A stretch of 64,000 nt of DNA from Escherichia phage pinkbiff: the sequence record MN850603.1; one strand, written 5' to 3'. Positions 31,626-31,770 of the stretch are shown piece by piece (position 1 is the stretch's first letter; every line of letters starts with the position of its first letter). The position numbers and the translations under genes were made by a program. A model generated the notes under the pieces. The model saw only the letters and a list, made by a program, of their open reading frames with translations. It did no database searches and had not been told where the DNA came from.

Positions 31626-31770
31626 AATTATCTTTGTAGATAAGCTACCCAGACTTGCTTAAGGTCTGTAGCGATGTGCCTTTTTGGGTTTAAATCTAGA
31701 ATTTACCCTTTCACCCTTTGTGGTCGCATACTCACAGGTAAGCTTAATAACTTATCTACAAAGATAATTA
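31626..31770 (-). ncRNA. inverted-repeat-closed structured element (candidate small RNA)
   Basis: about 20-bp inverted repeat (AATTATCTTTGTAGATAAGCT at 31626-31646 vs AGCTTA..TTATCTACAAAGATAATT at 31741-31770) enclosing about 95 nt with an internal hairpin; no ORF support. Confidence 0.3.

Follow-up and report, generated by a model that had tools for sequence, protein, structure and literature searches.

A conserved stem-closed RNA in the tRNA island of Escherichia phage pinkbiff, a candidate Y-RNA-like partner of a phage Ro60-like protein

The tRNA island and its unannotated spacer

We analysed a stretch of 64,000 nt from Escherichia phage pinkbiff (MN850603.1; hereafter the window), identified as a Felixounavirus (Felix O1-type myovirus), and within it an element of ~145 nt (31622..31770, minus strand) that its fold, alignments and covariance model R2 define as a stem-closed structured RNA. 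The element is located in a transfer RNA (tRNA) island in which ARAGORN predicted 26 tRNA genes (27610-32782), every one on the minus strand; island features are therefore read on that strand, and all window features described below lie on it. A 432-nt gap between tRNA-Asp (32054-32131) and tRNA-Lys(UUU) (31546-31621) contains the element, which begins 1 nt after the 3′ bracket strand of a tRNA-mimicking module and ends with the base directly before tRNA-Lys(UUU). The island is headed by an open reading frame (ORF) of 471 aa encoding a Ro60-like protein. The transcribed strand and this upstream gene are the decisive context, and we favour, at about even chances, the reading of the element as an accessory, Y-RNA-like RNA that belongs to a phage Ro60 system and represents a new structural variant of such RNAs.

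Over the 1 kb surrounding the element, the window shares 99.3 % identity with Escherichia phage finno, and 296 phage records match this stretch. Depositors have either left the gap blank or annotated short 'hypothetical proteins' in it, on the opposite strand. At two loci (L001, 429-608; L040, 4079-4189 and 4201-4353), there is overlap between the depositors' coding sequence (CDS) calls and tRNA genes, the element or the tRNA mimic; these 'hypothetical protein' calls, some of them on the non-transcribed strand, are probably spurious annotations. Two sigma-70-like promoter matches (32809..32929), found by consensus scan only, are positioned upstream of tRNA-Pro. The tRNAs of the island cover all amino acids but Trp, with no tRNA-Trp returned by ARAGORN or Rfam.

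Fold of the element

A first-pass annotation, made from the letters of the window, had described an inverted repeat of about 20 bp at this position, with a 5-nt insertion in one arm and a 95-nt core. The repeat is real: a repeat tool placed its arms at 31626-31647 and 31748-31769 (22 nt, 95 %, i.e. 21/22, complementary), with 100 nt rather than 95 nt between them, and the minus strand folds with an energy of −48.3 kcal/mol (z = −5.6; 0/200 shuffles as good), the plus-strand fold being weaker (−44.8). The 5-nt insertion proved unnecessary, as the minus-strand helix continues at that point via G.U pairs and thereby reaches 24 bp.

This closing helix (P1) pairs the 5′ strand AAUUAUCUUUGUAGAUAAGUUAUU (31746..31769) with the 3′ strand GGGUAGCUUAUCUACAAAGAUAAUU (31626..31649), both placed by the fold and by the joint alignment of two sequence variants, A and B (see below), and the latter also by the repeat tool. 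P1 is A+U rich and comprises 24 pairs, 19 of which are Watson-Crick pairs in a row. It is followed by a 4-nt single-stranded tail, UAAU (31622..31625), which separates it from the RNase P site of tRNA-Lys. The first-pass annotation had also reported an inner CAGAC/GTCTG hairpin, which is present as P4 (CAGAC-CUUAAGCAA-GUCUG; 31650..31668) and abuts the 3′ strand of P1. The central arm ends in the apical hairpin GGGUAAAUUCUAGAUUUAAACCC (31686..31708), in which AUUCUAGAUU is invariant in both variants and the hexamer TCTAGA (31695-31700) sits on the dyad axis of the element (31697.5). In the rest of the core (31670..31745), a small hairpin on the 5′ side and the basal part of the central arm have, for variant A, a fold predicted by alifold; the equivalent helix of variant B contains compensatory changes (see below). 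In both variants, the fold consists of P1, a four-way junction, this small hairpin, P4 with its ...AGCAA loop and a long central arm with AUUCUAGAUU as its cap.

Conservation and covariation

Our sample of 13 GenBank and 26 IMG/VR loci yielded 23 distinct element sequences. The element is present in ~250 Ounavirinae genomes as two sequence variants with one fold: variant A (Felix O1 type, ~190 phage records) and variant B (Mooglevirus/Suspvirus type, also found in some Felixounaviruses; 60 records), the second of which is missed by BLAST with a variant A query. RNAalifold returned the same architecture for both, although their core sequences are hardly alignable. The repeat is found in more than one isolate and does not belong to a degenerate tRNA, even though the module abutting it is a tRNA mimic.

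Covariation among homologous phages, which the first-pass annotation had proposed as a check, was found, with paired changes keeping P1, P4 and an internal helix. Across variants A and B, P1 is 98 % paired (17 distinct sequences) and has 4 pairs changed on both sides; P4 has one, its stem being either CAGAC/GUCUG or CAAACC/GGUUUG, a G-C to A-U compensatory change between the variants. Variant B taken alone is 99.5 % paired on the specified structure, compared with 28-45 % in slid controls, and contains 5 doubly changed pairs, a number matched by 0/500 shuffles; three of these fall within the internal helix, such that 3/7 of its pairs show compensatory changes. Wherever only one side of a pair has changed, the result is G.U on the minus strand, and several G.U pairs never vary; read on the plus strand, they would be A.C mismatches. 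Covariance model R2 gave the minus strand 161.7 bits and the plus strand 41.9. Variants A and B share a conserved P4 loop, which is also kept in a third, Yersinia variant (C). We are close to certain that selection has kept the element as a genuine RNA structure of the minus strand, and of the possibilities named in the first-pass annotation, it is the stem-closed non-coding RNA (ncRNA) that the ~250 genomes, the compensatory changes and the G.U-specific strand asymmetry bear out.

Variant A cores carry indels of 1 and 2 nt (L005, L016, L017 and L030), which exclude a coding function. A small protein gene was accordingly rejected, as these indels break the reading frame and the depositors' ORF calls are on the other strand. 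The Salmonella phages pSJ21 and Seyj1-1 (L004/L008) have a recombinant element in which an A-type outer P1 and an A-type P4 pair are combined with a B-type core, indicating modular exchange. Element variants and tRNA-mimic variants assort independently among phages. In Salmonella phage SP116 (L048, 479-714), recombination between the T-loop of the tRNA mimic and that of tRNA-Lys has deleted tRNA-Lys(UUU) and the element together with the 3′ half of the mimic, leaving a chimeric T-arm and the tRNA-Lys 3′ end.

Searches for known RNAs returned no assignment for the element. With Rfam at both gathering and permissive thresholds (E ≤ 10, 31540-32140), only tRNAs were matched in the spacer and none of the matches was in the element; ARAGORN found no tRNA or transfer-messenger RNA (tmRNA) within it, and no intrinsic terminator was detected at the element on either strand. 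A hammerhead-like core, suggested by CCGAUGA...GAC in variant B, was rejected because U4 and A14 are wrong, Rfam gives no match and the sequence of variant A is different. A literature search for Felix O1 ncRNA found nothing, and the PhageMaP text and supplements hold no data for ORFs that overlap the element.

A Ro60-like protein heads the island

[quoted passage not shown] It matches Pfam DUF2828 and DUF7788 as well as PHROG 850 ('RNA-binding protein'), and its DxSxS...T...D MIDAS motif is invariant in a 39-sequence alignment. Searches of the PDB by sequence returned no match with the single sequence and, with a profile, only matches to Ro60 at E ~1. The relationship became clear from structure. 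An alignment-based AlphaFold model reached a predicted local distance difference test score (pLDDT) of 86.8 and a predicted template modelling score (pTM) of 0.87 (a single-sequence model, with a pLDDT of 45, was unusable), and its nine best PDB matches are all Ro60/TROVE proteins aligned at full length over >510 columns (E = 3e-9 to 2e-7). These are Xenopus and human Ro60, Rsr of D. radiodurans and the Ro60 of Thermus phage phiLo (9kop, 9l5y), with isolated vWA domains ranking below them (E ~1e-3).

The protein family is present in 692 phage records and is annotated in mycobacteriophages as 'Ro-like RNA binding protein'; most GenBank records label the 471-aa ORF 'hypothetical protein'. A small upstream ORF (34443-34814, DUF5681) is a conserved neighbour that is also found in Yersinia phage P778. 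The Ro60-like identity of the protein is not new, being already known via Bas63 gp130, which is structurally Ro60-like and counters the ppl defence (2024 preprint, PMC11482910). The authors of that study suspected that Y RNAs were present among the 'tRNA genes' of the island, without naming any.

Bracket modules and a YrlA-class tRNA mimic

Four paralogous modules with the design ACAGA-AGACCNN-(U/A)UACAGCAA ... NNGGUCU-GG lie between the Ro60-like gene and the element. Each is closed by a 7-bp stem whose inner two pairs covary between paralogues (AA/UU or GU/AC), and the pattern AGACC-N(0-4)-WWWMAGCAA occurs 4 times in the island against an expectation of 0.05 for the whole window. Three of the modules consist of the bracket only (AGACCNN-UUACAGCAA...NNGGUCU-GG) and are possibly YrlB-like: one at 31915..31992 (AGACCAA-AUACAGCAA...UUGGUCU-GG), identified by reading the minus strand, by its fold and by pattern search, and two in the spacers between tRNA-Met and tRNA-Asn (32384..32447) and between tRNA-Glu and tRNA-Met (32542..32613), each supported by its fold, a model match and the pattern search.

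The fourth module (31771..31901) is an unannotated tRNA mimic enclosed by the bracket stem AGACCGU/ACGGUCU, which ends 1 nt before P1. It contains a variable hairpin (V), a perfect T-arm (31830-31846), a closed acceptor-like hairpin (AS; 31812-31829) and a D-arm (31795-31809). The acceptor-like hairpin (7 bp) has up to three pair types at 3/7 of its pairs (16 distinct sequences), while the T- and D-arms are constant. YrlA, a tRNA-mimicking bacterial Y RNA, has been described with this V-T-AS-D order enclosed by a terminal stem (PMC4201824); the shared order, together with a model match shared with the YrlA RNA of mycobacteriophage LeBron (see below), places the module in the YrlA class. A permuted tRNA or two-piece tmRNA, considered on account of the T-arm/closed-acceptor/D-arm order, was rejected: there is no G3.U70 and no anticodon arm, no tag reading frame is kept across indels and the order is that published for YrlA. 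Moogle-type relatives (L009, L012 and L013) have G-CCA after the 3′ acceptor strand of the mimic. Two further conserved hairpins, GGGCUAUUUAGCCC and CCCUUAAAGAGUUCUUACGAGUAUUCUUUAAAGGGG, are found directly 3′ of tRNA-Asp (31996-32053), upstream of the third bracket. Far from the island, at 44070-44085, there is an isolated match to the bracket pattern, AGACCTTAAAAAGCAA, possibly due to chance.

P4 of the element resembles a minimal copy of the bracket motif AGAC..(U)UA(C)AGCAA..GUCUGG. Written out as ACAGACC-UUAAGCAA-GUCUGGG, it reads as a bracket lacking the insert, with AGAC/GUCU stems and a loop, CUUAAGCAA, that is one base short of UUACAGCAA.

The RNAs accompany the protein family in other phages

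We searched distant loci encoding homologues of the Ro60-like protein with a covariance model built from the Ounavirinae copies of the bracketed tRNA mimic only. Full-length modules adjoin the Ro60-like gene in a 143-kb contig (L043; protein identity 51 %; E = 1e-11 and 1e-7) and a 153-kb contig (L044; protein identity 46 %; E = 4e-9). In mycobacteriophage LeBron (L049; protein identity 31 %), the model hit (E = 6e-7) falls on an RNA that Rfam YrlA also matches (E = 2e-7), and Yersinia phage P778 (L041; protein identity 53 %) returned weaker matches. Taken together, either bracketed T-AS-D modules or bracket-only UUACAGCAA hairpins adjoin homologous genes in L041, L043, L044, L045, L049 and L050, with the bracket-only hairpins adjoining the gene in Aeromonas phage LAh_8, L045 and Vibrio phage phi-pp2. 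The bracket design is kept at these six loci and the stem sequences differ. No module was found within 5 kb of the gene in L046 and L047 with this Ounavirinae-only model. The association of the RNAs with the protein family is frequent, not universal, and the stem-plus-CAGCAA bracket is a signature of the RNAs that accompany the DUF2828-type branch of Ro60; pair statistics from the pooled brackets are partly circular because the 3′ partners were picked by pairing. LeBron has a second, bracket-only hairpin, UGGUCAC-GAACAGCAA...GUGACCA (L049, ~4625-4680), after the YrlA match and downstream of the Ro-like gene.

Equivalents of the element itself were found in the Yersinia phage and in L044 by reading and folding the spacer before tRNA-Lys(UUU). 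In P778, this spacer (−53.1 kcal/mol, z = −3.1) has a 24-bp closing stem and a multibranched core; the P1 sequence is unrelated to that of pinkbiff, and a hairpin, AAAGUC-CCUUAGCAA-GACUUU, abuts the 3′ strand of the stem. In L044, the corresponding spacer (z = −3.8) likewise folds into a stem-closed RNA, in which GUUCAGCAA immediately follows the 5′ strand of a ~20-bp stem. A spacer RNA of L043 is closed by a 17-bp stem and carries two hairpins, one with CCUAAGCAAG and one resembling a T-arm. Spacers between tRNAs that combine a long closing stem with an AGCAA hairpin and a structured core, near a Ro60-like gene, therefore recur in four phage groups.

Other features of these loci were recorded in passing. 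P778 has a 692-nt tRNA-free spacer (8969-9661) with two T-arm-like sequences (~9120-9150 and ~9360-9390) upstream of its variant C element, which may be additional tRNA-like modules. Nicotinamide adenine dinucleotide (NAD)-salvage genes (NAPRTase, PRPP synthetase-like) precede the Ro60-like gene in L043 (1-5566) and L044 (1875-4493), and an IS605 OrfB/TnpB-like gene follows the tRNA array of L043.

Proposed role as a Y-RNA-like accessory RNA and possible mechanism

We observe the structure, strand and conservation of the element, a Ro60 fold in the protein next to it, and bracket- and YrlA-type RNAs that co-occur with this protein family, and from these observations we infer a link between the element and the Ro60-like protein. 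As is usual for Y RNAs, which lie within 4 kb of the gene, the element starts 1.18 kb downstream of the Ro60-like ORF on the same strand, and its ends pair in the 24-bp P1 around a four-way junction of 100 nt; its length of 145 nt slightly exceeds the usual Y RNA range of ~80-130 nt. The recurrence of the stem, AGCAA hairpin and core in four phage groups argues for a Y-RNA-like partner rather than a mere spacer.

We propose that transcription would start at the sigma-70-like promoters (32929-32809) and produce a polycistronic tRNA precursor, the island being read through without a terminator; a consensus scan, the only search for such signals, detected no terminator-like site on the minus strand before 27447. 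Cleavage by RNase P at tRNA-Lys +1 would then leave the element ending in P1 and UAAU, a poor substrate for 3′ exonucleases, such that P1 would both define and shield the ends of the RNA. On the 5′ side, a cut within or beside the neighbouring module may release the element, or the two may stay joined; the element could act alone or form the 3′ domain of a ~280-nt composite RNA that includes the tRNA mimic. The Ro60-like protein would bind the stem/AGCAA motif, and the other arms may recruit or block a further factor, with the conserved, partly self-complementary loop of the central arm contacting a partner. In known Ro60-Y RNA complexes, the further factor is an exoribonuclease such as polynucleotide phosphorylase (PNPase).

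A broader and more tentative proposal, to which we give about one chance in four, is that Felix O1-type and many other large phages carry Y-RNA-like modules in cis in their polycistronic tRNA precursors, namely stem brackets with a CAGCAA motif, a YrlA-class mimic and the four-armed, stem-closed RNA. The Ro60-like product of the gene heading the island might bind these modules to chaperone, process or protect the precursors, or to form ribonucleoproteins that neutralise host RNA-directed defences; the element would then be the first of a structurally new class of Ro60 partner RNAs, recognised via a new motif, for the DUF2828 branch.

Alternative explanations

Several observations weigh against a Y-RNA-like role. 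The Ro60-binding motif near the 5′ end (GNCGAAN0-1G in bacteria, a GGUCCGA bulged helix in animals) is absent from variant A; variant B contains GCCGAUGA, or GCCGAAGA in the L006/L022 types, located in the core and not in the stem. Rfam YrlA (RF02553) and Y_RNA gave no match at E ≤ 10 across 31540-32140, and the same library does match the LeBron Y RNA. A YrlA-type domain (V, T-arm, closed acceptor-like stem, D-arm) is absent inside 31622-31770, being present in the adjoining 31771-31901. Model R2 detected no homologue of the element in three distant Ro60-like loci. P4 was not scored by an out-of-group bracket model (R3), which was too weak and missed true brackets likewise, and the P4 loop decamer by itself is not rare (7 in the window against 2.5 expected). 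Moreover, gp130 alone, moved to T7 or a plasmid, counters ppl (PMC11482910), an activity that needs no phage RNAs, and the loss of the element in SP116 indicates that it is dispensable and accessory, like most of the island. The last point for this side of the balance comes from the island, where three spacers, that of the element and those with endings at 30393-30403 and 31052-31061, have a long hairpin followed by ...AAAGAU..UAAU up to the −1 position of the tRNA. The other two hairpins, at 30395-30485 (~30 bp) and 31052-31090 (~16 bp), end in ...AAAGAUUUAAU and ...AAAGAUUAAU directly before tRNA-Leu(UAG) and tRNA-Arg(UCU), respectively, and their outer-stem and tail sequences are the same as those of P1, suggesting that P1 may belong to a generic class of leader hairpins.

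Such a generic pre-tRNA leader or spacer hairpin is the main rival explanation. It would insulate spacer sequence from the adjacent tRNAs and act as a processing signal, perhaps as an entry site for RNase III or a block at the 3′ end after RNase P, with no link to Ro60 and with a core that merely stabilises the fold. We regard it as possible, though clearly less probable than a Y-RNA-like RNA, and the two are compatible rather than exclusive. Besides the shared tails, almost all island spacers of at least 60 nt have a stem-closed fold, SP116 does without the element, and the 24 pairs of P1 are within the size of an RNase III substrate (at least 20 bp of mostly regular double-stranded RNA), an option that the first-pass annotation had listed and with which the helix is compatible. 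An insulator, however, would not require the loops (AUUCUAGAUU and ..AGCAAG) to stay invariant while the helices of the variants diverged, and neither the three compensatory changes that keep the internal helix nor the retention of the P4 loop, and of its place beside the P1 3′ strand, in a phage with an unrelated P1 is expected of one.

Less likely still, and in our view improbable, is a free-standing regulatory or decoy RNA unrelated to Ro60, which might act as a decoy or sponge for an RNA-targeting host defence nuclease or RNA-binding protein or associate with itself via the palindromic UCUAGA. The conserved single-stranded loops and the self-complementary apex would suit such a role, as would the accessory nature of an element lost in SP116, and phage tRNA islands have been tied to the countering of tRNA-targeting defences (cited in PMC11482910). 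Nevertheless, the element matches no known RNA family and has no candidate target identified, and a decoy leaves unexplained both the shared bracket-like motif and the constant place beside a YrlA-class module. Features acting at the DNA level, namely a miniature inverted-repeat element as put forward in the first-pass annotation, a cruciform, or a TCTAGA-centred site for a dimeric protein or homing endonuclease, are largely refuted and very unlikely. In their favour are the dyad symmetry with TCTAGA exactly on the axis (31697.5), the homing endonuclease genes in the islands of relatives and the modular exchange seen in the two variants and the recombinant of pSJ21. The element is nonetheless single copy and always at the same locus, the search for additional arms finding no further copy of the exact 16-mer in the window; there is no clean presence or absence, as the variants replace one another at the locus. 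Furthermore, on the other strand, A.C mismatches would stand in place of the invariant G.U pairs and of the G.U pairs left by one-sided changes, and the non-palindromic internal helix covaries, so that the covariation is RNA-like on one strand only. Least credible is that the element is a tRNA gene of degenerate or unusual form, such as the absent tRNA-Trp; the four-way-junction topology within a tRNA island and the lack of tRNA-Trp among the 26 might speak for it. Sequence and structure models refute it: neither ARAGORN nor the Rfam tRNA model, even at E ≤ 10, returned a tRNA, and the sizes are wrong, with a 24-bp 'acceptor', a 9-nt 'T loop' without UUCRA and no GG D-loop.

Significance and comparison with known systems

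Complexes of Ro60 with Y RNAs are well studied in animals and a few bacteria, and their role in phages has barely been explored. The present locus offers concrete, unannotated Y RNA candidates with coordinates, folds and a shared motif, namely a YrlA-class mimic, three bracket hairpins and the stem-closed element, which make the question of the Ro60 partner directly testable. Such RNAs accompany the Ro60-like family, with its 692 phage records, across very different phages, and recognising them would put right the spurious 'hypothetical proteins' annotated on top of such RNAs in many GenBank records.

The element invites comparison with the species 1 and 2 RNAs of phage T4 (rnaC/rnaD), which are small, structured, co-transcribed with phage tRNAs and released by tRNA-processing enzymes, and whose function was long unknown; we know of no Ro60-like gene in T4. 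RNase III processing stems, such as those of rRNA operons and T7 early RNA, likewise place a helix of >20 bp around a structured RNA in a longer precursor. These stems enclose a functional RNA and are removed; in the element, the enclosed core has conserved loops.

Thermus phage phiLo provides a closer parallel. Its Ro60 binds two adjacent Y-RNA-like molecules, each with a 5′-3′ stem and an internal loop, together with host PNPase (PMC12135203). As in pinkbiff, a phage Ro60 is accompanied by adjacent unannotated RNAs (Yrl1/Yrl2), and phiRo60 is among the best structural matches of the pinkbiff protein. The phiLo RNAs differ from the element in being upstream of the gene, in carrying a CGAA motif and in that binding to the protein and to PNPase was demonstrated for them, whereas for the element we infer binding.

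The closest known systems are the bacterial and phage YrlA/YrlB RNAs of Salmonella, Mycobacterium smegmatis and mycobacteriophages (Chen et al. 2014, PMC4201824; RF02553). Unlike these, the element lacks GNCGAAN0-1G, an Rfam match and an inner T/D-arm domain. YrlA/YrlB are free-standing and 80-130 nt long, whereas the element is ~145 nt and resides in a polycistronic tRNA array, and its candidate partner belongs to a divergent DUF2828/DUF7788 branch with a shared motif, (U)UACAGCAA / AGCAA, that is unlike that of YrlA/YrlB. In common with them, it is encoded within 4 kb of a Ro60-type gene on the same strand, its ends pair into a long stem around a structured module, and it is one of several neighbouring RNAs with a common short motif, adjoining a genuine YrlA-class mimic.

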